From positions 369-64,368 of the forward strand of contig DPDG01000084.1 of NCBI GenBank assembly GCA_003526375.1: 64,000 nucleotides of DNA, written 5' to 3'. Of this stretch, positions 39,324 to 64,000 are shown one piece after another. Every line of letters starts with the position of its first letter. Position 1 is the first letter of the stretch. The notes beneath the pieces are model-generated. The model ran no database searches and was not told the DNA's origin. It saw nothing but the letters and a program-made list of their open reading frames with translations. Source of the DNA: Lentisphaeria bacterium. GTDB taxonomy: Bacteria; Verrucomicrobiota; Lentisphaeria; Victivallales; UBA1829. A program made the translations under genes and the position numbers.

Positions 39324-39440
39324 TTCTTAACGTGCTGTTTAACATTCAAATTATCAGCAGGTTAATGTTAAGAAAGGCGATTTCTTATTTTTCTTAATCG
39401 TTCTTAATTTCTCCTCACCGATCAAGAATGGAGTTCTTAA
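39324..39440. repeat. cluster of TTCTTAA heptamers in an AT-rich gap
   Basis: Direct copies at 39324, 39391, 39401 and 39434. A degenerate TTCTTAT at 39382. An inverted copy (TTAAGAA) at 39368. The three central copies are spaced 9-10 bp apart. Confidence 0.55.
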
Positions 39441-43061: not shown

Positions 43062-43186
43062 GTTATGTTCGGTTATGTTTGGAAATCCGGTTTCGGAAAA
43101 CCTGTTTGAGCACGAGACCGTTCCTGTTTGAGGCGGGAAAATTTTTGAAAAAAACAGCCGCGTTATGTTTTGCGTTATGTTTGGAA
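43062..43186. repeat. duplicated module GTTATGTT-N(2-4)-GTTATGTTTGGAA, two copies about 100 bp apart
   Basis: Copy 1 is at 43062-43084 and copy 2 at 43162-43186. Both lie in the divergent promoter region between the PrimPol operon and the sigma-factor gene. Confidence 0.7.
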
Positions 43187-43196
43187 GGGACAAGAG

Positions 43197-45473: not shown

Positions 45474-45721
45474 CTTTTTTCCCTCCATTCGAATGGTAGA
45501 TCCGGCTGATAGCAGTACACCTTCCGCGGCGGTGTGTATGTTTCTGTTTCTTTTGATGACCGATGGAACAACGCTAAAATTTTCTCCCACATGATGCGGC
45601 TGCCTTTCATTTTCGATTTGATTTTTGTTTCTGACCATAATATATTATGAGCAAGTAGACATCTTGTATCCACTCTGTGAATCCGTGATACAAAAATCGA
45701 AAAAAATTGGAGATACCCCGT

Positions 45722-46696
45722 ATGCCGCTGCAAAAATCCCAGATGCACCGCCTGATGCGAATTGCCGCACTGCTCAAGGAAAACCGTTACCCGAACTCGG
45801 AAACGCTGGTGAAGGAATTCCGGCGCATCGCCGTGGAGGAGGAATTGGAGATCGACTGCGGGAAAAAAACGATCCTGCGGGACATGAAGGTTCTGGAGGA
45901 AGAATTTCACTGTCCTCTTGCTTTTGACCGCGCCCGCAACGGCTACTATCTTCAGCATCACGGCTGGGATTTTATTGCCCCGGCCCTACTGGACGAAAAC
46001 GAGATGCTTGCAGCCGTCATCGGAGCGAGGATTGCGGAAGAAATCTTCCCGGCTCCCTTGAAAAACAAGATCCGCAATGCGGTGGACTATCTGCTCCAGA
46101 ACAACAATCCCGACTTTCTGGACACGGCCAACATGGAAAGTCTGAACATTCTTTCCGGACTGTATGCGAATCTGGAGCCCGACATTTTCATGACGGTCTT
46201 TCAGGGCTGGCTGACCCACCACTGTGTCAGAATTGACTATGCGGACTGGCGGGGACAGATTTCAAAACGTGTCATCGAACCGCACACGCTGGTCTTTTTC
46301 AACAATTCCTGGTACAGCAAAGCGTTTTGCCATGAGAAAAAACAGCCTCGCACGTTTTCTCTGCAAAGAATCAAAAGCGCGGAACTTCTGAAGGGGACAT
46401 TCGAGCCTGACAAGGAGATCATCGCCTCGGTCAATCCGGATGATTTTTTCAGCTTTGAAAAAGTCCAAAACGTAAAGCTGCATGCGGACAAATACGCGCT
46501 TGATCGCCTGAAGGCATTTCCTTTGCACAGCGGACAGGTCATCCATGATGACGGCACGGTCGAAATCCCGGCAGTCGCCAAAGAAGTCCTGTTTCCGTTT
46601 CTTTTCTCCCAGGAAGGAAATGTCAAAATTCTGGAACCGGTTGCCCTGAAGAAAGAATTCAAAGCAAAACTGCGGAAAATTCTCGACAACTGCTGA
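45722..46696 (+). CDS. HTH + WYL-domain transcriptional regulator (BrxR/CapW-like architecture)
   Basis: ATG at 45722 with a GGAGA RBS. N-terminal wHTH (RLMRIAALLKENRYPNSETLVKEF), central WYL-type domain (VFFNNSWYSKAFCHEKKQPRTFSLQRI), and a C-terminal extension. Confidence 0.8.
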   Translation: MPLQKSQMHRLMRIAALLKENRYPNSETLVKEFRRIAVEEELEIDCGKKTILRDMKVLEEEFHCPLAFDRARNGYYLQHHGWDFIAPALLDENEMLAAVIGARIAEEIFPAPLKNKIRNAVDYLLQNNNPDFLDTANMESLNILSGLYANLEPDIFMTVFQGWLTHHCVRIDYADWRGQISKRVIEPHTLVFFNNSWYSKAFCHEKKQPRTFSLQRIKSAELLKGTFEPDKEIIASVNPDDFFSFEKVQNVKLHADKYALDRLKAFPLHSGQVIHDDGTVEIPAVAKEVLFPFLFSQEGNVKILEPVALKKEFKAKLRKILDNC

Positions 46697-47098: not shown

Positions 47099-48340
47099 TC
47101 AGTCAAGCACTTTGCGGCAGAGTTTGCCGATCTCCCACGCGATACTCTCGTATATGCCGCAGGGATGGAACGCATTAAGCTCGTCTACCAGTGTCTGCGC
47201 CGTCCGGGGCAGCGCTTCCGCCAAGCGGGACAGTTCCACCAGCACCAGTTTGGGATTGAGATCGCAGCGCAGGGCCAGTTCTGCGAAGTGGTCTCTGGTC
47301 AGCACCCCCATTCGTGTTTCGCCGCCGATGCTCATGGCAAAACGTTTGGCAATGGAGTCGTAAACCATCGTCGAGAGCAGGTCATACGCCGGGGCGAACG
47401 ACGGCCGACCGTTCCGGTAGAGCACGGCGTAGTTCTTGGCGTGGGCGTCGCAGTTGCCGGTGAGAAAGTTGAAGATGAGCAGCCGGATGAAGCTCAATTT
47501 CCCCGCTGCGGGCATTTTGATCTCGGTCATCCTGCGCATGCACTCCTCCACGCCCGGACCGCCGTCCTCCTGATACTTGTGTTTCGGCGGCACGTTCAGC
47601 AGCTGGCAGAAGTCCTCCTGATGCAGGCGCACGGTAATGTCGTCCACCGTCTCGCGGTCAAAGCGTGTCACGGTATAAAACGGTTCGTCATTCAGCGTCA
47701 GAATATCGCACTCCGCTGCCTGGATGCCGCACTTTTGTGCGAGCCTCATGCAGAAGAACTCGTTGAACACGCTGTCGGGGAAGTTCGGAATCGCCGGTTT
47801 GATAATGTGCGTGGAGGGCGTTCCGTAAAGCGGCAGGGAGATTTTTCCGTTGCGGACGCAGGCTACCAGTTTTTCCTGCGACCCTGCGCCGGAGATGCGG
47901 ACCCCTTCGTCGCCGACGTCCAGCGGCCGCTGACCGAGGTTGTCCAAGATGCGGTATGCTTCATCACCGGAAAGGTCGCGGTAAACGGGATTTTTCAAAG
48001 ATTGCGGCGTCTGCCCCGCCGGATAGAATGACACCGCACCTGCGCAGTCCGCGCCGATCCGCTTCAGCATCCCGAAGGTGTTGTCCTCGGAAACATGGAG
48101 GATCATCGCCACCGTGGCGCGGATACGCTCGTCGGGCAGCAGATTGGAGAAGAAGTTCTCCACCGCGGGATCGTGGAAAACCTCGTCCGTCAGCGGCAGA
48201 TTCTGCGACAGCGGATAGGCGTCGGGCGAGCGCAGATACTCTGTCGAGTAGGCAAACGACATCGCGCCGTTGTCCTGCGACAGCGTCCCGATGCGGTCCG
48301 TGTTCAGAAACACATGAAGTTCATCGTGGATGTCGGACAT
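47099..48340 (-). CDS. hipA: HipA-family serine/threonine kinase toxin
   Basis: 413 aa. N-terminal LHVFLNTDRIGTL, SGAGSQEK, and catalytic loop GNCDAHAKNYAV. Confidence 0.9.
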   Translation of the reverse strand: MSDIHDELHVFLNTDRIGTLSQDNGAMSFAYSTEYLRSPDAYPLSQNLPLTDEVFHDPAVENFFSNLLPDERIRATVAMILHVSEDNTFGMLKRIGADCAGAVSFYPAGQTPQSLKNPVYRDLSGDEAYRILDNLGQRPLDVGDEGVRISGAGSQEKLVACVRNGKISLPLYGTPSTHIIKPAIPNFPDSVFNEFFCMRLAQKCGIQAAECDILTLNDEPFYTVTRFDRETVDDITVRLHQEDFCQLLNVPPKHKYQEDGGPGVEECMRRMTEIKMPAAGKLSFIRLLIFNFLTGNCDAHAKNYAVLYRNGRPSFAPAYDLLSTMVYDSIAKRFAMSIGGETRMGVLTRDHFAELALRCDLNPKLVLVELSRLAEALPRTAQTLVDELNAFHPCGIYESIAWEIGKLCRKVLD

Positions 48341-49056: not shown

Positions 49057-49085
49057 TTGAATTTTTACGTTTGGAGCAGTATATT
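49057..49085 (+). promoter_or_regulatory. candidate sigma-70-type promoter of the BREX-like operon
   Basis: TTGAAT (49057-62), 17-nt spacer, TATATT (49080-85), about 200 nt upstream of the ATG at 49286. Confidence 0.35.
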
Positions 49086-49285: not shown

Positions 49286-51871
49286 ATGAGCACATTCGGA
49301 ATAAAATGTCCTGGCTGCGAAATTCTCCTGGAAGCCGATGAAAACGATATCGGAGCCAAAGTCGAATGTACTGAATGCGGTCGACCTTTTATTCTCGCGC
49401 GGAATCCAGATCCCTCTTCGGCTGAGACCGCCAACGATACTGTGACTTTTACCTTCGATGCCTTCCCGAAAGATCTGGACTACAACCAGCCGTTGTTCCT
49501 GACAATGCCCAATGGCACTTTCCCGGTGGAAAGCTGGAGCAATGTGCTTGAAAAGTGTTTTTCCTATGCGTTTGCGAATAATGCCGCGAAAGTGGGAGAA
49601 TTGGTGGACATCAAAACTCCATTTCGCAAGGCAGTCCTCATTTCTCGGCACCCCGAACGGCTGCGAAGGGTAAAGGAATTGGGCGGTGATCTTTATATGG
49701 AAACTAATCTCAGCGCCCATGGGATCGTTAAAAGTGTCTGCGGACTCATGGCTTACTGTGGATTCCCGGTGAAGGCGATTTCGGTAACCTACCGGGTCAA
49801 GTCTTCCGAGCCGCCCGCTCCGGAAAGCAAAGTCGATGCGCCCGTATCGAGTTCCGAATTCAGCAAACCGCTGGATTTTTCCACGTTTACGACCGGGATC
49901 ACGATCCCCGTCAGGGTGCATGAAGCATTTTTGAAGCACTTGTCGGTTAAATTGGAACGGGGAAAGTCTCATCCCGTGACGATCATGGTCGGGGACAGCA
50001 GTTTTCAGGTCTCGATCAACAACATCGGTTTCTCCGACCCGAACCGGAAACAAGTCCTAGCGTTTCTGTGGCGGAAGAATTCTCCGCTTGCCAAGAGCTT
50101 TCAGGCAACTTTCACTGCGGCGTATCAGCAGCTGATGGAAGATCACGCCAATCGGACTGGGATCGACACGGCTCTGACCGTTTCCTGCGGTGAACAGCCA
50201 GATGTTTTCAAAATTGCCATGGATACGCCGTTGGTCGAAAGCAAAAAGCCAGACGCGCCCGTTCAAGCCGAAACGGTCGCCCCGATCTCGCTGGAAGCAA
50301 CTTCCCAGGATGGCATCCATGGAGTTCGTATTCAAGAAAATTGGATTCGGTTCGACTTCACAAATGCACCGTCATTTGAAAGGACTGTACCCGCATATTG
50401 CTGTATCGACGGGAATGTGTTCGAAGGAAGAAACTGGGTAAGGATACTTGTGGCGCTCGTGGAATTCGAACTTGCCAAAGGGAATCCGGCATTGGAGGAT
50501 CTTTATGAGAAATCTCTGTATGGCAAGAAAACAATACGGCCATTTTTGATGAAAAGCAGAATCGAGGGGAGTCGCAATTGTTCAGAACTTTCAAACGGAT
50601 ACTGGATTAATGTCGGATGGTCTATTCCGTTTTTAATGCAATTCATACAAGCTTTTCTCCTGCATTGTGGCTATGATGAGAAACAGGTCGTGATATACGG
50701 TGTGCCTAAAGCGAACAATTCTGCAACGCACGAAAGTTCTCAGACGAAGAAGACTGAAGTACATGGGGTTGACATGGAAAAAGCTGAGACCTTTTTGAAA
50801 ACGGCTGGATTGCGAGGGGCTACTGTGCAGGAATTGATCGATGCGATCCAGCCCAGTGCCGTATTCTGGTCAACAAAAAACCTGCTGGATGAAAACTTGA
50901 ATGTCATCGCCATGCCCGATAATCGCTATGTGCACGCCGACTGTTTTGTCGATCTGGATGAAGCAGAAGATGTTTTTGGGAAAATCCTCAGCTCCCATTT
51001 TGCGCGATTTGACGGATACAGCAACAATCAGCTTCTTTTTGGCGCGGCTTTACAAGAACTTTCAATGTTCCTGAATGATAATGACTGCGAAAACATTAAT
51101 GTGGTATATGCCATTGCCCGGTACCTGTTTGAGAAGAAGGCAGCAGGTAAAAAATATAAATTCGCTCCACCACACATCTTTGAGACCGAACCGGATTATC
51201 CACTGAACCTTAAGGGCCTGATGATCCGCCTTGCGAGAAGCAACGGAGGTATCCTCCATGAGGTTGATGCAAAACATTATCTTCAAAAGACCATGCTTAC
51301 CTATGGGAGTATAGGGCAACTGCTGCAGGTTGGAAACGATAAGATGTTCCTGATGTATGACCGTGACAGGTATTTGTTGAGCGAAGTTATTGGAATTGAC
51401 GATGCATGGTGCCGCCAGATGCATGATCGGGTGGATGACTTATTCCGCAAGGCCGATGTGGCGTATGTGATCCCGAGGGATATCAGTGAGGCATGGCTCA
51501 CCACCTTGCCGGTTTTGCCGCTGGGACTCGCATGGACACATCTTCTGCTTCAGGAAATACTTGATAAGTACCCCGCCATCGGATTCAAGTCGATTTCAGC
51601 CGGTCTGAATCAGGCGTATCATACATTGGCAGCAGCTTTTGTTTCAATTGATTCTCCTCTGCAGACTTTCCCGGATGTGGTAACGCTTTTCATGGAGGAA
51701 CACCATAAATTGCCTACACGCATGTCCGGCGAGGAGTTGCGGATCGAATTAAGGGACAAAGGAATGCTGGAAGCCGGTGAAATGATCTATTCGATTCACA
51801 AGGCGCTGAATGACTATCGTTTCGCATGGACGGATGAAAATAAAACAGTGCTGATTCGCGGGAATAAATAA
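49286..51871 (+). CDS. 861-aa protein with an N-terminal MJ0042-type zinc ribbon, otherwise unknown
   Basis: The ATG at 49286 gives MSTFGIKCPGCEILLEADENDIGAKVECTECGRPFIL (CxxC...CxxC). The track start 49097 adds 63 unlikely residues. It is the first gene of the operon. Confidence 0.7.
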   Translation: MSTFGIKCPGCEILLEADENDIGAKVECTECGRPFILARNPDPSSAETANDTVTFTFDAFPKDLDYNQPLFLTMPNGTFPVESWSNVLEKCFSYAFANNAAKVGELVDIKTPFRKAVLISRHPERLRRVKELGGDLYMETNLSAHGIVKSVCGLMAYCGFPVKAISVTYRVKSSEPPAPESKVDAPVSSSEFSKPLDFSTFTTGITIPVRVHEAFLKHLSVKLERGKSHPVTIMVGDSSFQVSINNIGFSDPNRKQVLAFLWRKNSPLAKSFQATFTAAYQQLMEDHANRTGIDTALTVSCGEQPDVFKIAMDTPLVESKKPDAPVQAETVAPISLEATSQDGIHGVRIQENWIRFDFTNAPSFERTVPAYCCIDGNVFEGRNWVRILVALVEFELAKGNPALEDLYEKSLYGKKTIRPFLMKSRIEGSRNCSELSNGYWINVGWSIPFLMQFIQAFLLHCGYDEKQVVIYGVPKANNSATHESSQTKKTEVHGVDMEKAETFLKTAGLRGATVQELIDAIQPSAVFWSTKNLLDENLNVIAMPDNRYVHADCFVDLDEAEDVFGKILSSHFARFDGYSNNQLLFGAALQELSMFLNDNDCENINVVYAIARYLFEKKAAGKKYKFAPPHIFETEPDYPLNLKGLMIRLARSNGGILHEVDAKHYLQKTMLTYGSIGQLLQVGNDKMFLMYDRDRYLLSEVIGIDDAWCRQMHDRVDDLFRKADVAYVIPRDISEAWLTTLPVLPLGLAWTHLLLQEILDKYPAIGFKSISAGLNQAYHTLAAAFVSIDSPLQTFPDVVTLFMEEHHKLPTRMSGEELRIELRDKGMLEAGEMIYSIHKALNDYRFAWTDENKTVLIRGNK

Positions 51872-51901
51872 GCGATAAGCCTAAGGGATAGAGAGTCAAA
51901 T

Positions 51902-54235
51902 ATGTATGGATATGAATGGACGGACAAGAACGGCATATACCGGTTGTCCGTTAACAGCAAAATTGAAAAAGAGATCCGGCCGGTTTTCAAAGATGAGCTG
52001 GATTATTTCGGCTTCAATGAACACTGGTCATACCCGAATACCAAGGCTCCGCTGCTTTGGGCAGAAGGAATCCGCCGCTATGTAATGAACGGTGTCTGTG
52101 TAGCGGAAGCTGTCGGCGGCGGATTTTACACCAAACCGGAAATAAAAATCTATCAGAACGGTCTGAAGCTGAAACCGATAAATGTCGGTGCACTTTGGAA
52201 AGCAAATGAGCGGCTGATGCTGGGCCTCGAAAAAACGGCAATGGATTTTATCCGCAACACTTATGATACATATGAAAAAGCGAGCATGGCTTTTGCTGTT
52301 GCCTTCAGTGGAGGGAAAGATTCTCTGGTTCTCCTTGATCTTGTATCCAGAGCACTTTCTCCGGACAAATTCTCCGTCGTGTTCAGTAACACCGGCATGG
52401 AACTTTCCACGACCATTCAGACAGTAGAAAAAGCGAAGAAGCATTGGGCATCACTGAAGTTTTATGAAGCAAGAAGTCATCTTAATCCCGCTGACAGCTG
52501 GCGAGAATTTGGCCCTCCGGGACGCCGAATGCGCTGGTGTTGCGCTGTCCACAAGTCTGTTCCGACCATTCTGCTTCTCCGGAGAATAACCGGAGATTAC
52601 ACCGTAAAAGCTGTTGTTTTTGACGGTGTCAGGGCAGAAGAAAGTGCGGCAAGAGCCGAGCGTGATGAAATCAGTGTCGGCGCGAAAAATATAAACCAAA
52701 TTAACTGTAGCCCAATACTGAAATGGAATTCATCTGAGTTATTTTTGTATCTTCTGAACTATGGAATTTTGTTAAATGATGCGTATCGTGTAGGCTTTAA
52801 TCGTGTAGGCTGCACAATTTGTCCTCTATCATCAGGATGGCGGGATAGTATTAGCAATCATGTTTACCCCGCCGAAATATCCCCATTGCTGAGCCAAGTA
52901 GAAAAATATACTGATGGTATTGGTATTAAGTCTTCTCAAAGAAAAAACTACATTGAGCAAAATGGTTGGCGCACTCGAATGGGCGGTCGCGGTCTTCCGA
53001 ATGGGGGCAACCGGTTTGAAGAAATAATAGCAAATGATCGAATTACGTTTAATTTTTTGCGAAAGACTCAAAATTGGCTTGATGTGTGCCCGATCCTTGG
53101 TCCCATAGTATATCATGAAGGGGATACGTTTACTCAGCTGATTGACAGGCAACAATTTCTCTTCCAGGTAAATAATAAATCTGTTTCTTATTGGCCTTAC
53201 TCAAAAATGGATAGGTTTATACTCAGCCATTTACGAGGTGTTGCCAATAAAACTGCTTATTGCTTTGGATGCAAAGCATGTGAGGTTGAATGTCCTGTTA
53301 ATGCATTTGCGATCACAGAAGAAAACAAAATCTATATAAGAGAAGAAAAGTGTATTCACTGTAGTAATTGCATTGAATTCACAAACGGGAAAGGTTGTTT
53401 AGCCGCAAAATCACTTTCCGTAACAAGAGGAGCAAACGGCATGGATTTAAAAGGAATGAATCGTTATCAGACCTTTGGTCTGCGGCGTCCGTGGCTTGAA
53501 CATTTTTTTGCAAACAGAGAAAATTGTTTTACCATGGGGGTATTGGGTAATCGTCAGTATGATTCACTGAAAGTATGGCTTCGCGAAGGTGGTCTCCTGA
53601 CCGCATCCAGCAAAGGTGAAAAATCAGGGATTCCGACTCCGCTTTTTGACAAGATCCAATCCCTCGGAGCCGGCAATCCTTTGACCTGGGCGATTATTTG
53701 GACCAATCTTGCATGCAACTCCATCATTGTAAAGTGGTACATGTTGAATGCCGCCGCAGGGGAAGTTTATGAGAAGAACGACCTGATTTTTCTGCTCGGT
53801 GATGATTATTCCCTGTCCACCCGTGATAATGCCGTGACTGCTCTGCTTGAGACGTTTCGCCATAGTCCCATAGGAACTGTTTTGAAGCAGGGTATTCCCA
53901 TTCCCAGCGGCAGCAGCTATAAGTTCTCAAAGCAGGGCTGGAACACTCCGGATGCAGTCGCTGTTCTTTATGCTTTGTACATGTGGGCTGAAGCCACGGG
54001 GCGCTATACCTTTACGCTGAGTCAGATGGCCGCAGCCAGAGGCAATGCGGATGTCAAGGGTGTCGACCCGGTTTCCATCTTCGGTATCGCTCCGGATCGG
54101 TTTAAGGATATTCTTCAGGATATCGCCCTGCAGTTTGACAAATACATCCGCACAACTTTTGTGGCGGATCTGGATAATGTTCAGCTTTTCCCGGAATACA
54201 AATCCATCGACATCTTGGATTTGATCGCGAAGTAA
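51902..54235 (+). CDS. brxP: BrxP-like PAPS-reductase-family PP-loop protein with an embedded 2x[4Fe-4S] ferredoxin-type module
   Basis: PP-loop FSGGKDS (52307-52324). RRMRWCCAVHK. CFGCKACEVECP and CIHCSNCIEF...GC (about 53261-53400). 777 aa. Confidence 0.8.
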   Translation: MYGYEWTDKNGIYRLSVNSKIEKEIRPVFKDELDYFGFNEHWSYPNTKAPLLWAEGIRRYVMNGVCVAEAVGGGFYTKPEIKIYQNGLKLKPINVGALWKANERLMLGLEKTAMDFIRNTYDTYEKASMAFAVAFSGGKDSLVLLDLVSRALSPDKFSVVFSNTGMELSTTIQTVEKAKKHWASLKFYEARSHLNPADSWREFGPPGRRMRWCCAVHKSVPTILLLRRITGDYTVKAVVFDGVRAEESAARAERDEISVGAKNINQINCSPILKWNSSELFLYLLNYGILLNDAYRVGFNRVGCTICPLSSGWRDSISNHVYPAEISPLLSQVEKYTDGIGIKSSQRKNYIEQNGWRTRMGGRGLPNGGNRFEEIIANDRITFNFLRKTQNWLDVCPILGPIVYHEGDTFTQLIDRQQFLFQVNNKSVSYWPYSKMDRFILSHLRGVANKTAYCFGCKACEVECPVNAFAITEENKIYIREEKCIHCSNCIEFTNGKGCLAAKSLSVTRGANGMDLKGMNRYQTFGLRRPWLEHFFANRENCFTMGVLGNRQYDSLKVWLREGGLLTASSKGEKSGIPTPLFDKIQSLGAGNPLTWAIIWTNLACNSIIVKWYMLNAAAGEVYEKNDLIFLLGDDYSLSTRDNAVTALLETFRHSPIGTVLKQGIPIPSGSSYKFSKQGWNTPDAVAVLYALYMWAEATGRYTFTLSQMAAARGNADVKGVDPVSIFGIAPDRFKDILQDIALQFDKYIRTTFVADLDNVQLFPEYKSIDILDLIAK

Positions 54236-54247
54236 GGAGACCGTGTT

Positions 54248-57200
54248 ATGGCGAAGTACAACACCTACATTGAATTAAGCCCCCATTATGAATCTGTGGT
54301 GGATATTGATTCCGAATCCCGATATCCCGACATGTGGCAGGATTACATCGTCCATGAGGACATGCAGAAAGCCGTAGAATGTATCTGTGATTCTTTGCGA
54401 TATGAAGATAAGGATAAGCGGCGTTCCTTTTGGATCCACGGTACTTACGGGACCGGCAAAAGTTACGCAGCCATCGTGCTGAAGCATCTTTTTGAGGATA
54501 GCATCCCCAATATCCATAAATTTCTGTCAAAACAAATGCTGATCCCATACAGGGAGCGTTTCCTTTCAATTCGTGAGAAAGGTGATTTTCTGGTGATCTG
54601 GAAGAGCCAGGCAACAGATATTCGTAACGGCACTCAGCTCATGATGACAATGGAGCATGCTATTCGTAAAAAATTGAAGGAAAAATACGGAGAAAAAGCG
54701 TATTTCGGCAAGAATTCTCTGATTGCGGCGGCCCGGGATGCCGTAGAGGATTCCGACATCAATTGGGATGAGCTTTTTTCAAATCCGACCTATGCGCTTT
54801 CTGAAGAATACAGCTCGTTTAGGGAATTTCACGATGAGGTTTTGAATGGGAATCTGAAGGCCGCAAATATCGTGGCTCGCATCTATCGCGATAAGGGCTG
54901 GGGGTTCTTTACTTCACTGCAAATGTTTAAGGACTGGGTCGCAGATGTAATCGAAGGCAACCATCTTCAGGACACCGGCATTATCTTTATTTGGGACGAA
55001 TTTACCTCTTATCTTCGAAATAATTCTACAGATGATGTATTGCAGCCACTTTCGGAATTTTGTAAAGAGCAGCCTTTCTTTATGTTTCTTATCGTTCATA
55101 AAGCAGTAAGCTGGTTAAGTCAAATCGGCGAGGAGGTTTATGAGCAAATCATTCATCGTTACCACTCGCTTAATTTCCATGTCAGTGAGAGCGCGGCCTA
55201 TGAGTTGATCGGCAGTTCTATTTTGACTCGTGCCGGAATGGAGGAGCAGTGGAATGCGGAGCGGGACAAACTGATGAAGTCGATCAGTAAAAATTTTGCT
55301 GACTTCGACAACTTGGACATAAGTAGTAAGAAAGAGCGGCTCCGTCAACTTTGTCCTCTGCATCCGATGACGCTTTCGCTGCTGGCCATCGTGGCTCAAA
55401 ATTTCGGAGCGTCCCAGCGTACGCTGTTCCGTTTTATGAAAGACCCGAAAGGTGCCGAACAAAATGTGGGGTTCATCTATTACATAAACCACTTTGGCCC
55501 GGATGACTGGCGTTGGCTGACGCCGGATTTCTTGTGGGATTACTTCTTTACCAAAGAAAGTGATTTGCGCAGTTTTTCTCCAGAAGCAAAAAGTGCTTAT
55601 CAGCATTACATAACCAAGCGGGAATTCATTTCTGACGAATATCATTTGCATGTGTTTAAGGCCGCCATGCTTCTGCTTGCCGTCATGTCTTCGGGGAACG
55701 TCAGCAACCTTTATAGTCAGGCCACAACGCAACGTAAGGTTCCCTCGACCAGCAACACGCTTTATAAGTGCTTTGCCGGCCAGTTGAACAAAGAAGATGT
55801 GGAGATGTATCTTTCCGATCTTGAGCAGATTGGTCTCATACGTCTTGATGCCATGTCCAATGGCGACAAACGGCTCCAAATCCCCTACAGCGGAAATACT
55901 GATGTGTTTGATGTCCGCAAGGGTATGCTGATGAAGAGGTATTCCCGTTACGAACTCTTTAAGAAAAACGGTATTTTTGCCAAGTCGATGGAAGCGAAGA
56001 TTTGGGATAAGACCAATGCGTCCTACGGCAGGATGTACATTGCGGCCTGTGATGCAGGTACGAATTCGACCAATTTGAGGTTTAATGAGATTCAGGATGA
56101 GCTTAAAAAGTATCCTTATAAATTCGGAATCCTTGTAATCACGATCTCAGAATCGAGTCAGTTCGCTGCGATGCAGGACAAGGTTAAAGCTCTTGCCGGG
56201 CAGGACACAACGGGACGCATGGCGGTCTATTTAATGAAATCTCCGCTCACAGACGATCATTTGGACCGTTGGTACAATGCCATGACACATTCCGAGCTTG
56301 CCGCAGAGGAAGGCAAGAGCGGTGATTCCGAGCGATATAAGGATGAGGCGAGTACGATTATTGAAGAATGGTCCGGCTCCGCTAAGGACGATCAGCTGAT
56401 GGTAGTTTGTGGTGACAAGGTCTACCCATCGGAATACGGCACAGATTTCTTTGCTCCGAAGTTGGAGAAAGATATTTTGTTTGGCTCCATATTTACAGCC
56501 GCGCCCGAATTGATTGTAACAACCAATACGGCTTTTAAGAAAAACCAGCAGAGTACAGCCTTGGCAGGCATACAAAAGAAGGTGCCTAATACGCAGGTTG
56601 GAAATATTGTCAACGGTTTGAAAACGGCTGGAGTGTGGGAAACGGATGGGCTTGAGAAGCTTGCCCAAAGTTCCGGCAATAATGGCGCTGTTGCCATTGC
56701 AAAAATTGCAAGCTTTATTTTACAGCGTTTTTCGCAAGGGATGCAAATTAAGCTGGATGATTTTGTGCAAGAACTGCACGGAGCTCCTTTCGGCTACTAC
56801 GATAACATGACTTGCGGCTATATTCTCGGTTTTCTGCTCAGATACTATGTCAACAGTGAGTTCAGTTGGAATAAAGGAGACAATAATCCCTGGCCACTGA
56901 ATGAACAAACTCTTGCCACCATGATTACGGCCATTTGTAAGGAGGATGTCGTCAATAATTATCTTTCTCCCGGTACTGAAATTTGGCAGAAATTCAAGCC
57001 CTATGTGCAAAAGGTTTTTAAACTTCAGGACGGTGAAGCGGTCAATGAAACTGAAGCCCGCAAATATATGTCCAAACAATGTACGGAAAAAGCTGGTGTT
57101 CCATTCTGGGTTCTCAAGTTTGTGACAGAAGAAAAATTCGGAGGAGCGGCAACAAAACAAGTCGCGAACGATATTATTGATCTCTTCTGCGACTTCATGA

Positions 57201-58444
57201 ACGAGAACGGTGATCAGGAGCAGGTGATGAGCAGTATCACGGTGAAGTTTACTGGCCGGGGCTCGTTGCGAAAAGTCCTGACCGATCTTTATTTTGACCA
57301 AAATACAGTTTATGATGCATTCAGTTCCTTCATTTCTCAGCGGTGCCAACAATTGCAGGCGTTGCGAGAGAACATTGGTTTGACCAGTCATGATCTCTTC
57401 GATGCTATCCATCAGATGATGCAAGGTCAGGTTTCCACATGGACTGAGGATCAAGTCGGAGAAAAGCTTGCAGAACTCTGCGTCGAATATCGTGCGGTTT
57501 CAATTCTGAATGGTGCTCTCAATCTGAAACGAAAGAGCATTAAGGCCTTGAGCAATGATATTGAGAATGCCTTGGGAAATATGAAGATACCTGGGACCGT
57601 GATCGAAAAGCTGGATTACGCATGGCTTCCGGCGCTAAGGGCCATGTTACAGATAATTGCCTCACAATGGTCCAAGATTGAATTGGCCGACCGTGAAGCT
57701 TATGTGCAACTTCTGAGCAATGATGCGCAAACAGTATGGAGTAACATTACCTCGTCCAAAACAGTTCTTCAGCGTTACATGGAGAAGCATGATTACAACT
57801 GTAGTGAGGACGAACTGGATGGTATTTATGCCGCGCTGAAACCGGTTAGTTACAACTCCCCCGCCTCTGACTTTGATGCCAGAATTGATACGCAACTTAA
57901 GAAGATCGCATATAACCGTAACAAAGTGCGAATACAGAAACTTTGGGAATCTCAGAGCGGGTTTGAGTCTGTTGCGAAATGGTGTGATAATTTTGCTGTA
58001 CCGATCCAATGGGTCGTAGAAGATGAATTACTGCCGCATATCACCGTTTTGAAAACGGTGCAGGATGGCCGACTCTCAGACAGTATTGCGCTTCATAACG
58101 CAACGCAGTATTTCGAGAACCATACTGTCAGTGTGCTGAAAGACAAGGCATTCATAAAGACCCGCTTCATTGCACAAATCGGCGAAAGCTATCGTGCCGC
58201 ATTTGAGGCATCCGAAACAGTGCTGGTTTCTCGTCTGAAGACAAATGCAAAGTTGTCCTCGGACGTTTATCTATGGGCAAACAAGGTCGCGGAAATCCGC
58301 AAGATCATTGACGCATTCCTGCTGGATAAATATTGCGGAGAAGCAAAAAAGAAAGTTAAGACCATGCCTGAAGCCAAGTTGCGTGAAAGGGTCGTTAAGC
58401 TACTGGAAGAGAATCCTGATCTTTATACCCTGTTTATGAGTTGA
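54248..58444 (+). CDS. brxC: BrxC/PglY-like large P-loop ATPase
   Basis: AAGGAGA RBS. Walker A GTYGTGKS (54440-54463) about 65 aa from the N-terminus. 1398 aa. It sits between brxP and pglZ. Confidence 0.75.
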   Translation: MAKYNTYIELSPHYESVVDIDSESRYPDMWQDYIVHEDMQKAVECICDSLRYEDKDKRRSFWIHGTYGTGKSYAAIVLKHLFEDSIPNIHKFLSKQMLIPYRERFLSIREKGDFLVIWKSQATDIRNGTQLMMTMEHAIRKKLKEKYGEKAYFGKNSLIAAARDAVEDSDINWDELFSNPTYALSEEYSSFREFHDEVLNGNLKAANIVARIYRDKGWGFFTSLQMFKDWVADVIEGNHLQDTGIIFIWDEFTSYLRNNSTDDVLQPLSEFCKEQPFFMFLIVHKAVSWLSQIGEEVYEQIIHRYHSLNFHVSESAAYELIGSSILTRAGMEEQWNAERDKLMKSISKNFADFDNLDISSKKERLRQLCPLHPMTLSLLAIVAQNFGASQRTLFRFMKDPKGAEQNVGFIYYINHFGPDDWRWLTPDFLWDYFFTKESDLRSFSPEAKSAYQHYITKREFISDEYHLHVFKAAMLLLAVMSSGNVSNLYSQATTQRKVPSTSNTLYKCFAGQLNKEDVEMYLSDLEQIGLIRLDAMSNGDKRLQIPYSGNTDVFDVRKGMLMKRYSRYELFKKNGIFAKSMEAKIWDKTNASYGRMYIAACDAGTNSTNLRFNEIQDELKKYPYKFGILVITISESSQFAAMQDKVKALAGQDTTGRMAVYLMKSPLTDDHLDRWYNAMTHSELAAEEGKSGDSERYKDEASTIIEEWSGSAKDDQLMVVCGDKVYPSEYGTDFFAPKLEKDILFGSIFTAAPELIVTTNTAFKKNQQSTALAGIQKKVPNTQVGNIVNGLKTAGVWETDGLEKLAQSSGNNGAVAIAKIASFILQRFSQGMQIKLDDFVQELHGAPFGYYDNMTCGYILGFLLRYYVNSEFSWNKGDNNPWPLNEQTLATMITAICKEDVVNNYLSPGTEIWQKFKPYVQKVFKLQDGEAVNETEARKYMSKQCTEKAGVPFWVLKFVTEEKFGGAATKQVANDIIDLFCDFMNENGDQEQVMSSITVKFTGRGSLRKVLTDLYFDQNTVYDAFSSFISQRCQQLQALRENIGLTSHDLFDAIHQMMQGQVSTWTEDQVGEKLAELCVEYRAVSILNGALNLKRKSIKALSNDIENALGNMKIPGTVIEKLDYAWLPALRAMLQIIASQWSKIELADREAYVQLLSNDAQTVWSNITSSKTVLQRYMEKHDYNCSEDELDGIYAALKPVSYNSPASDFDARIDTQLKKIAYNRNKVRIQKLWESQSGFESVAKWCDNFAVPIQWVVEDELLPHITVLKTVQDGRLSDSIALHNATQYFENHTVSVLKDKAFIKTRFIAQIGESYRAAFEASETVLVSRLKTNAKLSSDVYLWANKVAEIRKIIDAFLLDKYCGEAKKKVKTMPEAKLRERVVKLLEENPDLYTLFMS

Positions 58445-58461
58445 CGAAGGAGGGGAGAGCC

Positions 58462-60822
58462 GTGGTAATCACTGAAATTGAGGAAAAGCTTAGTCAGGAA
58501 CGGGGCTTCGGGTCCCGCTTCCCAGCCCGGATTATATTTGCCGAAAGTCTTGAGTCCTATTCTTTGCTCGAACGCCAGCTGAAGGCCATCTGCGATATCA
58601 CGATCAATGTTGCAGATTTTTGTAGTGCCTTGGATACAGTTCCTCAATTTGACCGGATCAAAGCGATACTGGAAGAACACGAGGGGAAACAGATATTATT
58701 GCTTTCTGTTGGTGAGTATCTCCGTCTGTGTATTAACCGTGAGTTAAATGCAGAACGTCGTCAATTTCTCTCATTTTGGGAGACGCAACAGGCAGAAACA
58801 TCGAGGACCAGAATCATCATGCCGATGTTCAGTTGTCGCGACATCTTCGACCGAGTCGCAGGTGCTATAGACGAGCGCCAGCAGGATTATATCTGGGTTC
58901 TTGACAGTGTGCCTCCCATTGAGCGTTATACTGTTTCCGTTTACTCTCCTCAATTTAAGGATGCAATCAAGCCCGACGCCAGGAATTTGACAGAATGGCT
59001 GCGTGATTGGCAGAAATTCCTCCTGAAAGATACATCCTGTTCAATAGTGACCAATCAAGAGAGAAATGCTGAGATCTCCTATGGCACAGTGAGTATCAGA
59101 CTGATCAATAGCCCGTTTGGCTACCTGGCGGGTCTTTTGGCAGAGGGAACTGCTCTTGTCGAAAAGTGGGAAAGCAATGAATTTTGGAGTCAAATGGTCA
59201 ATTATACCTCCCATTTTCACGACGGGGTTTCTTTTGCAAAGATAGTTCTTCATTCCCTGAATATCAAAACATTTGACTTCGTTTCGATAGTGACAAGATG
59301 GACTACCTTGAGCAAATTCCAAAAAGAACTCGTGTGGCTTTGGTATCGTGTGTTTCCGACAGAAGAATATTATTCCTATGCTTGCGAAAAAGCGGATTCT
59401 GCAGCGGATATCCCGGCTAAAATCAGAGACGAAATTCTACTGGTAGCCAGCAGGAGTCCTATATGGATCGAACAAAGGATGGCGGCAATGAAGGTTTTGA
59501 ATTTTCCTTCATTTGACGATGCTTATTTTGCGAAACTTGACAAACTTCCTCTTGCAGAAACGAAACTTCAGCTTTTGACCTATCAAACGCATGAGGAAAG
59601 AACCTTTGCCGTGAAAGTAATCAGTAATCTTTTGCGGAACGGAGCAGAGTCCGATGCCGTGGCTGACACTATTTCCGATGCTTATCCTGCGCTGGCAAGT
59701 TATATGAAAGATAACACTGGCTGTGACGAAGCATTGGATAAATATATGCGGTGGTACCGAAAGAACAAACTTATCAATCGGTATCCAGGTGATTATCCCG
59801 TTCCGATGACCTTTGATCGCTTCGATGCCCGTTTTAAGTTGATGCATCAGATGGAAGGCAAAGATTGTGTTGCTTTCTGGATCGACGGTTTTGGTGTGGA
59901 ATATGCTCCGCTCTTTCTGCATGAGCTGAAAGCGAGAGGAATAGAACCTGATTCGGTAAAAATTGCAACGGCGCTTCTCCCGACAGAGACGAGTTATAAT
60001 CACCAATGGGATGAGAATGATCCAATGACGCTGAAGTGGGATCGCTTGGATTCATGCTCTCATAAAGGTATGCCGGACGACAAAAGTTATTATTCTTGCA
60101 TTGTTCACCAACTTGCCGTTTTTGCCGAAGCCGCCGAAAAAGTCGAAAAACTTTTGGAAGAGCATAACTATGTGATTATCACAGGGGATCATGGTAGCAG
60201 CCGTTTTGCAGCGCTTGCATTTCATGATTCCAGCGTTGTCCCTGTGGCGCCCCCTCGTAAATCGACGATTAGGAGTTTTGGACGTTTTTGTGAACTTGAT
60301 GAAAAATCCATCGACATGATTCCACTCCCAGATACCAGCAAATTGATTGCTACAATTGGTGGCAAAACAGTTCTGGTCATGAACAACTATCAACATTTTG
60401 CTGTAGGTGGCAACATCGCTAGCGGGAATGCAGAAGACAATGATGTTGTCGGCGAAACCCATGGAGGAAATACGGCGGAGGAGCGTCTTGTTCCCGTCTT
60501 TGTAGTAAAAAAAGGAAAAAAACTTGTGCCGATTACTTGCAAACCGAAAAATCCATATGTGACCAAGAAAAATGGTCATGTAGAAACAATATTCTCATTC
60601 AGTCAGTCGATATTTACTCTTGAGGTCGCTCAAGGGAGCAAAAAAGCCGTTTGCACAGAAATTTCGGCAGGGGAATGGCAGATTGCCTTGGATAATGTGA
60701 CAACAGATGTAATTATTCTTTCTGTTATTGCAAACGGGAGACTCTTACCCAATGTCACGCTGAAAGTTAAAACCTCGGGTATCAGCAAGAACAGTGATCC
60801 GTTTGGAGATATGGGATCATGA
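58462..60822 (+). CDS. pglZ: PglZ-domain (alkaline-phosphatase superfamily) protein
   Basis: GTG at 58462 after an AAGGAGGGGAG RBS (track TTG 58441 is the alternative). PglZ core AFWIDGFGVEY...ITGDHGSSRF...ETHGG. Confidence 0.85.
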   Translation: MVITEIEEKLSQERGFGSRFPARIIFAESLESYSLLERQLKAICDITINVADFCSALDTVPQFDRIKAILEEHEGKQILLLSVGEYLRLCINRELNAERRQFLSFWETQQAETSRTRIIMPMFSCRDIFDRVAGAIDERQQDYIWVLDSVPPIERYTVSVYSPQFKDAIKPDARNLTEWLRDWQKFLLKDTSCSIVTNQERNAEISYGTVSIRLINSPFGYLAGLLAEGTALVEKWESNEFWSQMVNYTSHFHDGVSFAKIVLHSLNIKTFDFVSIVTRWTTLSKFQKELVWLWYRVFPTEEYYSYACEKADSAADIPAKIRDEILLVASRSPIWIEQRMAAMKVLNFPSFDDAYFAKLDKLPLAETKLQLLTYQTHEERTFAVKVISNLLRNGAESDAVADTISDAYPALASYMKDNTGCDEALDKYMRWYRKNKLINRYPGDYPVPMTFDRFDARFKLMHQMEGKDCVAFWIDGFGVEYAPLFLHELKARGIEPDSVKIATALLPTETSYNHQWDENDPMTLKWDRLDSCSHKGMPDDKSYYSCIVHQLAVFAEAAEKVEKLLEEHNYVIITGDHGSSRFAALAFHDSSVVPVAPPRKSTIRSFGRFCELDEKSIDMIPLPDTSKLIATIGGKTVLVMNNYQHFAVGGNIASGNAEDNDVVGETHGGNTAEERLVPVFVVKKGKKLVPITCKPKNPYVTKKNGHVETIFSFSQSIFTLEVAQGSKKAVCTEISAGEWQIALDNVTTDVIILSVIANGRLLPNVTLKVKTSGISKNSDPFGDMGS

Positions 60823-61022
60823 GACGGAAAAAAGTTGAATGCTGCGAGTGTCGCAAGACGTTAGTAAAGGATGAGGTTGCTTTGTGCAAAAAGTTACTCG
60901 CCACCGATACGGCAGTTTTTTACTGTATTGACTGCCTGGCTGCATATTTGGAGTGCACAAAGCAAGACCTTGAAATCAAAATACAGGAATTCAAAGAACA
61001 GGGTTGTGCCCTGTTTTTGTAA
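60819..61022 (+). CDS. 67-aa CxxC/CxxC mini-protein (zinc-ribbon-like)
   Basis: ATGA overlap with the pglZ stop. VECCECRK...FYCIDCLAAYLEC. Confidence 0.5.
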   Translation: MRRKKVECCECRKTLVKDEVALCKKLLATDTAVFYCIDCLAAYLECTKQDLEIKIQEFKEQGCALFL

Positions 61023-61036
61023 ATCAGGAGAAAATT

Positions 61037-62476
61037 ATGATGTTGGAAGATAAAATTCGCGATGTCTTCGGCGACATGGTCGTGCTGAAAAATCCGGAAC
61101 GGGCTGAATTTTTTAAGAATTTGAGCCTGCCTTCATATATGCGAGATTGGCTGGTCATGAAGTTTTCAAATGAAAATGGGGAAATTGATTACGACAATGT
61201 ACTCAGCTATATTCGGCAATATATCCCGAGTCGAGAGGATTATGAACAATTCAAGTTTGAAATGGTTAATGGTGAAACCGTTCGTTTTCTTGCAAGATTA
61301 CGTGTTGCTGTTGACATTAAAACAGGAAAGACCATGTTTGAATTGCCTGATTTTGGGGGAGCCAAGGCTGGTGCTGCTGGTGAGGTTACTAATGATGTTG
61401 TAAATAGATGGAAAGATACGCTTCTTAAAGAAAGCGAAAATTGGGGGGTTCTCGAGCTTATCTGGGGAAAGGATAGGGCAAAGGGAGTAGTAAAACTCAT
61501 TGGATACAGCCCATTTTGCCCCTATACTGTTAATTTGGACTATTATAAAGATGCAAGGAATTCATTTACGACAGAAGAATGGATTGATCTTCTTATCGCG
61601 GCTGCAGATTATAACCCGGAAGGTTACGAATCCGAAGCTCAAAAACTCTGTTTCCTCAGGCGACTGCTCCCCTTTGTGGAAAAGCGTATCAACCTCATGG
61701 AACTTGCGCCTAAAGGGACTGGGAAAAGTTATGTGTATCAAAAAATCAGCAAGCGAGGGTGGTTGATAACAGGAGGTACGGTCTCTCGTGCCTCTCTTGT
61801 CTATGATAATGCAAAAAAGACCGGAGGGCTTATTACTCGTTTCGACTTTGTCGGGTTTGATGAAATTCAGTCCATGTCGTTTGTGCAGCCAACGCAGATT
61901 CAGACCGCACTGAAGGATTACATGGAATTCGGCGAAGTTAAGGGATTCGACGCATCTGTTGTTGCCGGGGCAGGAATCATTGTGCTTGGTAATATTGATG
62001 CCAGCAGATTTAATACCAATGAGAATATGATGGTGGAAGTCAGTCCGATTTTCAAGGAATCGGCTTCATTGGATCGCTTTCACGGTTTTATTCCTGGCTG
62101 GGAACTTCCTCGTATGCACCAAGGTCTTGTCGCCAATGGTTGGGCTCTGAATACTGAGTATTTTGCGGAAGTTTTGCATCTCATGCGTGATGATCTGAGT
62201 TATGCTACAATTGTTGACGATTGCCTTCTTCTTCCACCAAAACCAGACCAGCGTGATCTGACTGCCATTACGCGGTTGTGTACCGCGTTTATGAAGTTGA
62301 TTTTCCCGAATGCAAAATGCAAAGAAGATATTTCACCAGAAGACTTTATAAAATATTGCCTGGAGCCGGCCAAAGAAATGCGCAGCGTGATAAAGAAGCA
62401 ACTTTGCATTATTGATCCAAAGGAATTCAATGTTCCTGGGAAGAAAGATATTCCTGATATTCGCTACAAGTATTGA
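61037..62476 (+). CDS. brxL: BrxL-like ATPase (Lon-related AAA+ core, short form)
   Basis: ATG at 61037 with an AGGAG RBS. N-terminal NLSLPSYMRDWLVMKF...GETVRFLARLRV as in BrxL. Walker A APKGTGKS and Walker B VGFDEIQ. 479 aa. Confidence 0.75.
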   Translation: MMLEDKIRDVFGDMVVLKNPERAEFFKNLSLPSYMRDWLVMKFSNENGEIDYDNVLSYIRQYIPSREDYEQFKFEMVNGETVRFLARLRVAVDIKTGKTMFELPDFGGAKAGAAGEVTNDVVNRWKDTLLKESENWGVLELIWGKDRAKGVVKLIGYSPFCPYTVNLDYYKDARNSFTTEEWIDLLIAAADYNPEGYESEAQKLCFLRRLLPFVEKRINLMELAPKGTGKSYVYQKISKRGWLITGGTVSRASLVYDNAKKTGGLITRFDFVGFDEIQSMSFVQPTQIQTALKDYMEFGEVKGFDASVVAGAGIIVLGNIDASRFNTNENMMVEVSPIFKESASLDRFHGFIPGWELPRMHQGLVANGWALNTEYFAEVLHLMRDDLSYATIVDDCLLLPPKPDQRDLTAITRLCTAFMKLIFPNAKCKEDISPEDFIKYCLEPAKEMRSVIKKQLCIIDPKEFNVPGKKDIPDIRYKY

Positions 62477-62486
62477 GGTGAGAATC

Positions 62487-63620
62487 TTGGCAAAGAATTA
62501 CATTTACGCCGATAATGCGGCGACCACCAAACTGGCTCCCGAAGCACTCGAAGCCATGATGCCGTTTCTCACCGATGAATACGGCAATCCGTCCAGTTTG
62601 TATTCCTTCAGCAGATCCGCGAAAAAGGCTTTAGCTGATGCCAGAGCTGTCATCGCCGAATGTATTGGAGCATCTCCGGAGGAGATCTTCTTCACCAGCG
62701 GCGGAACCGAAAGTGATAATTGGGCGATCAAAGGTTTTCTGCCGTATGGGAAGGTGATTGCATCTGCAATTGAGCACCATGCTGTTATGAATTCTCTTGC
62801 TTATTATGACCATTTTCAGCATGGTCCGGGCAAATTGCTGTCGGTAGACAAACGAGGAACTGTCTCCTTCAAATCGTTAGAAAATGCTCTTTCCCGCCGG
62901 GTGGCATTGGTGTCGGTTATGCTGGCTAATAATGAAATCGGAACCATCGAACCGGTCAGGGAACTGGCTGCAATGACTCATGAGTATGGCGCGGCGTTTC
63001 ATACTGATGCCGTTCAGGCCGTCGGTCATATTCCCGTAAATGTCGGAGCTCTTGGTGTTGATTTACTTTCCGCCTCGGCACACAAATTTCATGGGCCCAA
63101 GGGAATCGGGTTCCTTTATTGCAAGAAAGGAGACCCCTTGGAAAGATTTCTGGATGGCGGACAACAGGAAGCCGGGATGCGCGCAGGCACGGAAAATGTT
63201 GCTGCCATCGTTGGTATGGCGACTGCGTTGAGACTCTGCTGCGAAAGAATGAACGAAGTTACTGCCCGTTTGACCGAGATGACCAGCTGTTTCAGTAAAA
63301 TAATCAATGCCAACATTCCTGAAGCAACATTCAACGGAGACTCGGAACATCGTCTGCCGGGTCACATCAGCCTGTCCATCCCTGGTATTTCAGGAGAAGC
63401 TCTGATGCATGTCCTCGATTTGAAAGGTATCGCCGTATCGACGGGTGCAGCCTGCGATTCCCGTTCGACCAAAATTTCAGACGTGTTGAAAGCGATCAGG
63501 CTGCCGGTGAAACTGGCGAAGGGGACCATCCGAATCACTTTGGGAGCGTATAATACCGTGGATCAGGCACAATATATCGCCGACAAAATCGTTGAATACT
63601 TCAGGAACGTCTCAAAATGA
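62487..63620 (+). CDS. class V aminotransferase-fold cysteine desulfurase (NifS/IscS/DndA-like)
   Basis: TTG at 62487 (or GTG at 62478) after a GAGGTG RBS, 1-10 nt past the brxL stop. YADNAATT, TSGGTESDN, PLP-lysine SAHKFHGPKG, and active-site loop STGAACDS. Confidence 0.9.
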   Translation: MAKNYIYADNAATTKLAPEALEAMMPFLTDEYGNPSSLYSFSRSAKKALADARAVIAECIGASPEEIFFTSGGTESDNWAIKGFLPYGKVIASAIEHHAVMNSLAYYDHFQHGPGKLLSVDKRGTVSFKSLENALSRRVALVSVMLANNEIGTIEPVRELAAMTHEYGAAFHTDAVQAVGHIPVNVGALGVDLLSASAHKFHGPKGIGFLYCKKGDPLERFLDGGQQEAGMRAGTENVAAIVGMATALRLCCERMNEVTARLTEMTSCFSKIINANIPEATFNGDSEHRLPGHISLSIPGISGEALMHVLDLKGIAVSTGAACDSRSTKISDVLKAIRLPVKLAKGTIRITLGAYNTVDQAQYIADKIVEYFRNVSK

Positions 63621-64000
63621 AAACTTATAAACAAATAATATCCGAGGTCGGGCAGATAGGTTATGAGTATGCTGCAGACATTGAAAGATGGTATAAAGAA
63701 GACGGATTACCTCTTGACGAAATGAGTCATTCTGAGCTTTTTGATTATTTTACAGCTGGAGGAGACGCATTCCCGGAACAAGCTTGGTCTTGGGCTGGAG
63801 AGTATGAGTGGATTAATGATGACGGAACAATTCATTATTTGGATGAATGTGGTAATATTAAAGATGGCACTGCTGACGAGTTGGAAGATACCTTTAATAC
63901 TGCAATCAGACGGTATATAAACGAACACTATTCCAAGCTTATGGTTGCTGATGATTATAAATTGCGAGTGGAACATAATTTTGTAGGTAATAAATTCAAA
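63617..64000 (+). CDS. acidic hypothetical protein, 3' end outside the window
   Basis: The ATG at 63617 overlaps the desulfurase stop (ATGA). The frame stays open for 128 codons to the window edge (MKTYKQIISEVGQIGYEYAADIERWYKEDGLPLDEMSH...). It is not in the ORF track because it has no stop. Confidence 0.5.
   Translation, partial: MKTYKQIISEVGQIGYEYAADIERWYKEDGLPLDEMSHSELFDYFTAGGDAFPEQAWSWAGEYEWINDDGTIHYLDECGNIKDGTADELEDTFNTAIRRYINEHYSKLMVADDYKLRVEHNFVGNKFK

Follow-up and report, generated by a model that had tools for sequence, protein, structure and literature searches.

The window examined here, a 64,000-nucleotide stretch of contig DPDG01000084.1 from a Lentisphaeria bacterium, carries at its 3' end an operon that is assigned by profile searches as an intact and complete type 4 bacteriophage exclusion (BREX) anti-phage system. 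Its gene content, read together with published work on related systems and a survey of related loci, makes it very probable that the operon is a complete type 4 BREX of the kind that makes phosphorothioate (PT) DNA, with its own sulfur supply and located on an island that a Lentisphaeria of the human gut gained by horizontal transfer. BREX type 4 has been shown to make PT DNA (Yuan et al., bioRxiv June 2024; Nat Commun January 2026; PMC12914056), and a survey in Nucleic Acids Research (January 2026; PMC12839542) found that 255 out of 457 type 4 BREX taxa have a cysteine desulfurase, regarded it as a potential sixth core component and reported a small zinc-finger protein alongside it. The original prediction for this locus had taken the modification chemistry of type 4 BREX to be uncharacterised and the presence of a desulfurase to be a hybrid not described as such; these two publications make both statements outdated. 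The locus is a further example of a published architecture, of which the chemistry and the association with a desulfurase and a zinc-finger protein are already known.

Identification of the operon and its core genes

Eight open reading frames (ORFs) on the plus strand extend from position 49286 to the window edge, as had been noted, and are spaced by gaps of 1–30 nt or overlap by 4 nt. All are full length within the window apart from the last, which crosses the edge, and their catalytic motifs are intact; each motif quoted earlier for BrxP, BrxC, PglZ, BrxL and the desulfurase was located at an exact position. A scan for sigma-70 promoters and terminators gave weak consensus matches only, with one promoter-like site at 49057–49085, upstream of the first gene. 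Searches against PADLOC, Pfam and NCBIfam profiles bore out the assignment of the four core genes brxP, brxC, pglZ and brxL.

The brxP gene (51902–54235) lies 30 nt after the first gene of the operon and encodes a polypeptide of 777 amino acids that matches the PADLOC BrxP model with an E-value of 4.5e-230, covering positions 1–775 of 779. Pfam PAPS_reduct was detected at an E-value of 1e-28 (100.8 bits; cutoff 22.5), in addition to Fer4_7, Fer4_10 and Fer4. The motifs SGGKDS (residue 136), RWCC (211), CFGCKACEVECP (454) and CIHCSNC (484) were identified, and all of the cysteines in these motifs were invariant among 17 homologues. A second PADLOC BrxP model, PDLC02511 (265 positions), matched residues 520–773 (E 2e-21). 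Published descriptions of BrxP place a cysteine-rich region of the ferredoxin type after an additional alpha+beta domain (PMC12839542). By sequence, the window protein is a PP-loop enzyme of the PAPS-reductase family with a cysteine cluster of the 2x[4Fe-4S] ferredoxin type and a predicted C-terminal DNA-binding region. In a gut metagenome-assembled genome (MAG) labelled 'Lentisphaeria bacterium' at NCBI it is annotated merely as 'hypothetical protein'.

The next gene, brxC (54248–58444), follows after 12 nt and encodes a polypeptide of 1398 amino acids, identified from its sequence as a BrxC/PglY-type P-loop ATPase that is SspC-like. It matched PADLOC BrxC over residues 4–899 (E 9e-72), with a Walker A motif GTYGTGKS at residue 65, and also the PADLOC SspC models (E 4e-24). 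The N-terminus of Pfam DUF6079 scored 22.4 bits, slightly under the cutoff of 23, and an NCBIfam BrxC model in the style of type 1 scored 26 bits against a cutoff of 400, which is expected because type 4 BrxC is divergent.

Overlapping brxC by 4 nt, pglZ (brxZ; 58441–60822) has a TTG start, and a start 21 nt later is chosen by some gene callers. The predicted protein of 793 amino acids matched the NCBIfam model NF033445 (BREX_PglZ_4) with 262.6 bits (cutoff 140) over positions 1–740 of 741, and PADLOC PglZ with an E-value of 6e-31. With FWIDGFG at residue 479 and ITGDHGSS at residue 580, its sequence identifies it as a PglZ of the BREX-4 subtype with an alkaline-phosphatase-superfamily core. 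The brxL gene (61037–62476) encodes a polypeptide of 479 amino acids that scored 409.2 bits against TIGR02688 (cutoff 329.3) and matched PADLOC BrxL (E 2.8e-180), Pfam BrxL_ATPase (E 1.4e-103) and BrxL_N (E 2.9e-23), with APKGTGKS at residue 224 and GFDEIQ at residue 273. This is a short form of BrxL, consisting of BrxL_N and the AAA+ ATPase without a Lon protease domain.

No methyltransferase domain of Pfam and no [NDS]PP[YFW] motif was found in any of the eight ORFs, in agreement with the earlier reading, and no methyltransferase was found among the upstream neighbours of the operon or among the genes that follow it on L002, one of four near-identical contigs (L001–L004) that continue past the window edge.

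Cysteine desulfurase and small zinc-finger protein

One nucleotide after brxL, a gene at 62478–63620 encodes a cysteine desulfurase of 380 amino acids from a GTG start (396 amino acids from an alternative ATG at 62430). It matched Aminotran_5 with an E-value of 1.4e-78 (264.9 bits) and contains SAHKFHGPKG at residue 200 and STGAACDS at residue 321. The PADLOC DndA and SspA models, for which no curated cutoffs exist, matched with E-values of 3.7e-125 and 2.2e-122, respectively. On these sequence features the protein is a class V pyridoxal phosphate enzyme similar to NifS, IscS, DndA and SspA, with the cofactor-binding lysine placed in SAHK and the catalytic cysteine in STGAACDS. Scores against the NCBIfam equivalog models were below the cutoffs for DndA (TIGR03235; 303.6 of 480 bits), NifS (431.9 of 530.75 bits) and IscS, and the sequence is assigned to a distinct NifS/IscS-like lineage that is not a DndA equivalog.

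Between pglZ, with which it shares an ATGA overlap, and brxL, 14 nt further on, a small gene (60819–61022) encodes a cysteine-rich protein of 67 amino acids with the pattern CCEC...CIDC. No family in Pfam, PADLOC, PHROG or NCBIfam was identified for it. Homologues were also present in the divergent BREX-4 loci L069 and L075, and the protein matches the 'small zinc-finger protein' published with the desulfurases of type 4 BREX (PMC12839542).

Conservation of the operon in related loci

One genome per species was scanned with an alignment of BrxP, and the resulting 60 loci were searched by tblastn with the proteins of the window. The search patterns were N-terminal peptides of BrxP, and the survey covers the clade in which these are shared. 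The loci were from Oscillospiraceae, Lachnospiraceae, Christensenellales, Selenomonadaceae and Veillonellaceae, with a few from Odoribacter, Tannerellaceae and Bacteroidaceae. The order 861-aa gene, brxP, brxC, pglZ, 67-aa gene, brxL and desulfurase was kept down to 46% identity in BrxP and less than 30% identity in BrxC and PglZ. Among the 39 loci in which the sequence continued for at least 1.2 kb past brxL, here called complete, the desulfurase was found directly 3' of brxL in 35, which represented many families, and a homologue of the 67-aa gene was present in 38. These counts show the expected strong linkage of a desulfurase gene to brxP in other genomes. A homologue of the 861-aa gene was found directly upstream of brxP in 55 of the 60 loci. 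The 90% rate for the desulfurase is compatible with the 56% published for type 4 systems as a whole because the survey represents a single BrxP clade.

The window desulfurase shared 45–58% identity with its counterparts in the survey loci, even in relatives (L010, L011, L014 and L062) whose BrxL was 91–92% identical. This low identity despite the close similarity of BrxL suggests from the sequences that the tail of the operon, made up of the desulfurase gene and the 270-aa gene that follows it, may have been exchanged, with a recombination joint directly after brxL.

Several loci departed from the usual gene set. A Selenomonadaceae locus (L021, 10001–17700) contained genes for BrxP, BrxC, the 67-aa protein and the desulfurase but none for PglZ and BrxL. 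The locus has the appearance of a BREX-4 derivative reduced to the modification function, and its gene set fits the published view that BrxP, BrxC and the desulfurase form the modification module. Loci L070 and L071 (1–6500) encoded a WYL regulator, a helix-turn-helix protein, an 893-aa protein with faint integrase-SAM-like matches, BrxL, a 66-aa zinc-finger protein, a desulfurase and a 155-aa protein homologous to a domain of the last gene product of the window operon; no PglZ was present upstream in this variant context. In one relative (L012), an ORF with an IDPPYN methyltransferase motif was found downstream of the desulfurase (21856–22335); it probably belongs to a separate restriction-modification system of its island and is not conserved with BREX-4.

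Predicted pathway and alternative explanations

In the pathway predicted for the operon, the desulfurase would use L-cysteine as the sulfur source and bind the sulfur as a persulfide at its active-site cysteine, as expected from its family and the intact SAHK and GAAC motifs. By analogy with DndA–DndC and SspA–SspD, the sulfur would be passed to BrxP as the Fe-S PP-loop ATP-pyrophosphatase of the DndC/SspD family, and BrxP and the SspC-like BrxC would write PT at a short motif on host DNA. The last step is proposed by homology, with genetic proof in Bacteroides salyersiae, where deletion of brxC abolishes PT (PMC12914056). In B. thetaiotaomicron, brxP and brxC reconstitute PT, with SufS assumed to be the host desulfurase (PMC12914056). 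PglZ and BrxL presumably exclude unmarked phage DNA; both are dispensable for PT synthesis in B. salyersiae (PMC12914056). The 67-aa zinc-finger protein would be a recurrent small partner of the desulfurase, perhaps with a regulatory role, and the 861-aa and 270-aa proteins encoded upstream and downstream would be accessory. The earlier proposal of a sulfur-mobilising module, comprising BrxP, its Fe-S region and the desulfurase on a BREX chassis, stands, directly supported by experiments on related systems (PMC12914056). Having its own sulfur donor, the self-contained operon would be a convenient unit for heterologous reconstitution.

Four points weigh against the assignment as a PT-forming BREX. 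PT formation and phage resistance are predictions for this operon, made from its genes. The scores of the desulfurase below the DndA, NifS and IscS equivalog cutoffs make its partner specificity tentative. Pfam DUF4007, an SspB/BrxA-like DNA-binding domain that type 4 systems usually carry fused to BrxP, was undetected in the C-terminus of BrxP (residues 501–777), even at E-values up to 10. PT dinucleotides were found in 30 gut isolates with brxPCZL, all of them Bacteroidota and including all four genera examined (PMC12914056), whereas the nearest relatives of the window operon are mostly in Clostridia and its host belongs to the Lentisphaeria; the same BrxP clade nonetheless includes loci from Odoribacter, Tannerellaceae and Bacteroidaceae.

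The last of these points also bears on the alternative that BrxP of this clade installs a mark other than backbone PT, containing sulfur or not, or acts on a target that is not DNA. All assayed PT systems lie outside the Clostridia and Lentisphaeria part of the clade, and BrxP is without the DndC-specific cysteine dyad while having the extra alpha+beta domain and the ferredoxin-type cluster (PMC12839542). However, the full-length match of BrxP to its model, the same architecture as in the validated Bacteroidota systems, the SspC-like nature of BrxC and the detection of PT in every brxPCZL genus of Bacteroidota examined argue for the PT mark, and a different mark or target is unlikely.

The desulfurase could instead be a housekeeping NifS or IscS that serves Fe-S cluster or thio-cofactor synthesis and neighbours the BREX genes by chance. 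Its best NCBIfam match was indeed to NifS (431.9 bits against 303.6 for DndA), and housekeeping desulfurases can replace DndA (PMC12914056, PMC10853773). Against this, the scores are under the NifS and IscS equivalog cutoffs and there is no adjacent scaffold gene of the NifU/IscU type. The gene shares the low G+C content of the island, its stop codon overlaps the start of the next gene and at least 24 contigs carry it together with the island. Its place immediately 3' of brxL in 35 of the 39 complete loci, and its presence in the divergent BREX-4 loci L069 and L075, also make a chance neighbour very unlikely. That the locus is a decaying or silent remnant without current function is the least credible explanation. 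Deletion remnants of the operon do exist elsewhere (a gene fusion followed by a desulfurase in L076), and brxC is split in L001 and L003, but the window ORFs are full length with intact catalytic motifs and the intact operon was present in many independent samples.

An 861-amino-acid protein encoded upstream of brxP

The first gene of the operon (49286–51871, ATG start) encodes a polypeptide of 861 amino acids for which no Pfam, PADLOC, PHROG or NCBIfam family was found. Three parts were distinguished: a zinc ribbon (residues 1–42, CPGC...CTEC), a variable module (residues 48–340) and a conserved C-terminal module (residues 347–861) consisting of an alpha/beta domain and a tandem winged-helix array. 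In an AlphaFold2 model the predicted local distance difference test (pLDDT) score was about 90 for residues 347–861 and poor for the N-terminal half. A Foldseek search of this model against the PDB gave nothing significant, the weak matches being to the tandem winged helices of SelB WH2-4, Dcc1 and TFIIIC, and a sequence-profile search of the family against the PDB returned only spurious coiled-coil and kinase matches.

Among database homologues the N- and C-terminal halves occur in differing combinations, and some members of the family have another N-terminal half, as in P0172, where a McrB-type N-terminal DNA-binding domain takes its place. Residues 48–339 of the window protein were 79% identical to the corresponding module of a 969-aa protein (L078, 1713–4622). 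This protein is encoded upstream of a very different BREX-4 system, in which BrxP has no more than 30% identity to that of the window. From these sequences, the N-terminal half looks like a sensor or specificity module that is shuffled between BREX-4 systems. The model and the conservation upstream of brxP point to a clade-conserved accessory protein that probably binds DNA. No mention of the family among the components of type 4 systems was found in the main text of either PMC12839542 or PMC12914056.

Two further readings of this family were set aside. A relationship of the winged-helix array to the C-terminal, DUF4007-like region of BrxP, as a second copy of it, was rejected on an hhalign probability of 1%. 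A 790-aa protein (P0218; L076, 10001–13512) that joins residues 339–692 of the 861-aa family to the BrxL ATPase was discounted as a meaningful fusion; it was read as a deletion remnant because its context has no brxP, brxC or pglZ and a desulfurase follows directly. The locus is best read as the product of a deletion in which brxP, brxC, pglZ and the zinc-finger gene were lost.

A Cys/His-rich domain encoded by the last gene

The last gene overlaps the desulfurase gene (ATGA) and begins at 63617, so that 128 of its 270 codons lie in the window (63617–64000). The full gene was read from the near-identical contigs L001–L004 (12799–13611 in L002). No Pfam, PHROG, PADLOC or NCBIfam family was found for the 270-aa protein. 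Past the window edge, it contains a C-terminal domain of 150 amino acids that is rich in cysteine, histidine and beta structure, and homologues of this domain are mostly stand-alone proteins of about 155 amino acids. In the alignment, T145, N197, Y198 and N201 were invariant, and conservation reached 90% or more of the sequences at H120, N121, H143, C144, C185, H200, H203, C253 and R254. The structure model of the domain had a pLDDT of about 97; Foldseek gave no significant match in the PDB, and in BFVD two uncharacterised phage proteins were matched with E-values of 4e-9 and 1e-8. A scan of 1.84 billion representative proteins with a hidden Markov model (HMM) identified 382 relatives at E-values up to 0.001, and ten more distant or longer members of the family contained no Pfam domain and no fused known domain.

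Homologues of the domain were encoded directly 3' of the desulfurase in another type of BREX-4 locus, L069–L072 (6001–6468 in L069), and between brxL and the desulfurase gene in L075 (10001–10855). In one locus (L074, 10001–10471) the homologue adjoins dndE-dndD-dndC, and in another (L073) it is part of an element without PT genes within 10 kb on either side. None of the 60 survey loci contained the domain in an HMM search, which shows that it does not characterise the BrxP clade of the window in general.

A sulfur-handling or metal-binding function of this domain is conjectural, suggested by the genes beside it and by the conserved cysteine and histidine residues. More broadly, the two accessory genes might be unrecognised working parts of PT systems, the 150-aa domain relaying sulfur from the desulfurase to the PP-loop enzyme or serving the two as a metal-cofactor partner, and the 861-aa protein acting as a sensor or specificity subunit that chooses DNA for BREX-4; we regard this as speculative and rather doubtful. 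The winged-helix protein and the Cys/His domain are candidates for the sensing and sulfur-handling steps of BREX-4.

Host and genomic context

The first 33 kb of the window (1–33000) contain ordinary chromosomal genes, including those for glycogen phosphorylase, GTP-dependent phosphoenolpyruvate carboxykinase (PEPCK) and oxaloacetate decarboxylase. The sequences of these three genes and of BrxP were identical to those of the 'Lentisphaeria bacterium' gut MAG. The G+C content was 0.43–0.47 (about 0.45) across the operon, against about 0.49–0.59 (about 0.52) upstream. Between the chromosomal genes and the operon are a tRNA-Ala gene (33152–33228) and genes for a DDE transposase (33640–35130), a large serine recombinase (36122–37822, minus strand), a PrimPol/DUF3987 protein (39437–41698, minus strand) and a sigma-70-like protein (43170–44210). 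The operon apparently resides on a mobile, horizontally acquired defence island in a human-gut Lentisphaeria bacterium, the island being considered mobile because of the drop in G+C content and the tRNA-Ala, transposase, serine recombinase and PrimPol genes upstream. The island has its closest relatives among Clostridia, and this implies that it was passed from one phylum to another. The locus contributes an intact case from an unusual host phylum (Lentisphaerota).

Closer to the operon, a plus-strand gene (45707–46696) encodes a BrxR/CapW-like WYL/WCX protein (Pfam WYL E 7e-18, WCX E 1e-6), a candidate regulator of the island whose link to the operon is one of proximity only. A hipBA-like pair on the minus strand, including the HipA toxin kinase gene (47099–48340), lies between this gene and the operon.

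At least 24 metagenome contigs, nearly all of them assembled from samples of the human gut, encode an identical 67-aa protein. On L001 and L002 the operon ends with the 270-aa gene, followed after a gap of 88 nt by a gene for a calcineurin-like metallophosphoesterase (Metallophos) and, further downstream on the minus strand, by two genes of the RlaP family (Pfam PF10127) and HipA/HipB-like genes. In L001 (3437–7626) and L003 (2857–7053), which are otherwise near-identical, brxC is present as two ORFs encoding 607 and 803 amino acids and 876 and 507 amino acids, respectively; a frameshift, a stop variant or an assembly error could account for the split.

Comparison with known systems

With BREX type 1 the window operon shares homologues of BrxC, PglZ and BrxL and a nearby WYL (BrxR-like) regulator. 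It differs in having no PglX and no separate BrxA or BrxB, and in its BrxL, which is without the Lon protease domain. The similarity to DndABCDE consists of a DndA-like desulfurase and a PP-loop enzyme of the DndC family, whereas DndB, DndD and DndE are absent and the match of BrxP to DndC is marginal (E about 1e-6, over short stretches). Correspondence to SspABCD extends to an SspA-like desulfurase, an SspD-like PP-loop enzyme and an SspC-like ATPase of the DUF6079 type. According to the literature, SspB/DUF4007 corresponds to the C-terminus of BrxP, in which SspB and SspD are fused. The match between BrxP and SspD is nevertheless weak (E 9e-5), and the partners in the window are PglZ and BrxL instead of SspE or SspFGH.

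The brxPCZL system of B. salyersiae (PMC12914056) has the same four core genes. There they belong to a seven-gene operon that includes mcrA and depends on a host desulfurase, whereas a desulfurase gene is part of the window operon, in which no McrA/HNH gene was detected.

The closest correspondence is with the desulfurase-bearing type 4 BREX systems (PMC12839542). The zinc-finger gene is between pglZ and brxL in the window operon and beside the desulfurase gene in L069, and the window operon has two further co-directional genes, encoding the 861-aa protein upstream and the 270-aa protein downstream, of which no mention as components was found in the main text of PMC12839542. BrxP, BrxC, PglZ, BrxL, a DndA-like desulfurase, a small zinc-finger protein and the lack of a methyltransferase are common to both, and the window operon differs from these systems in nothing essential.

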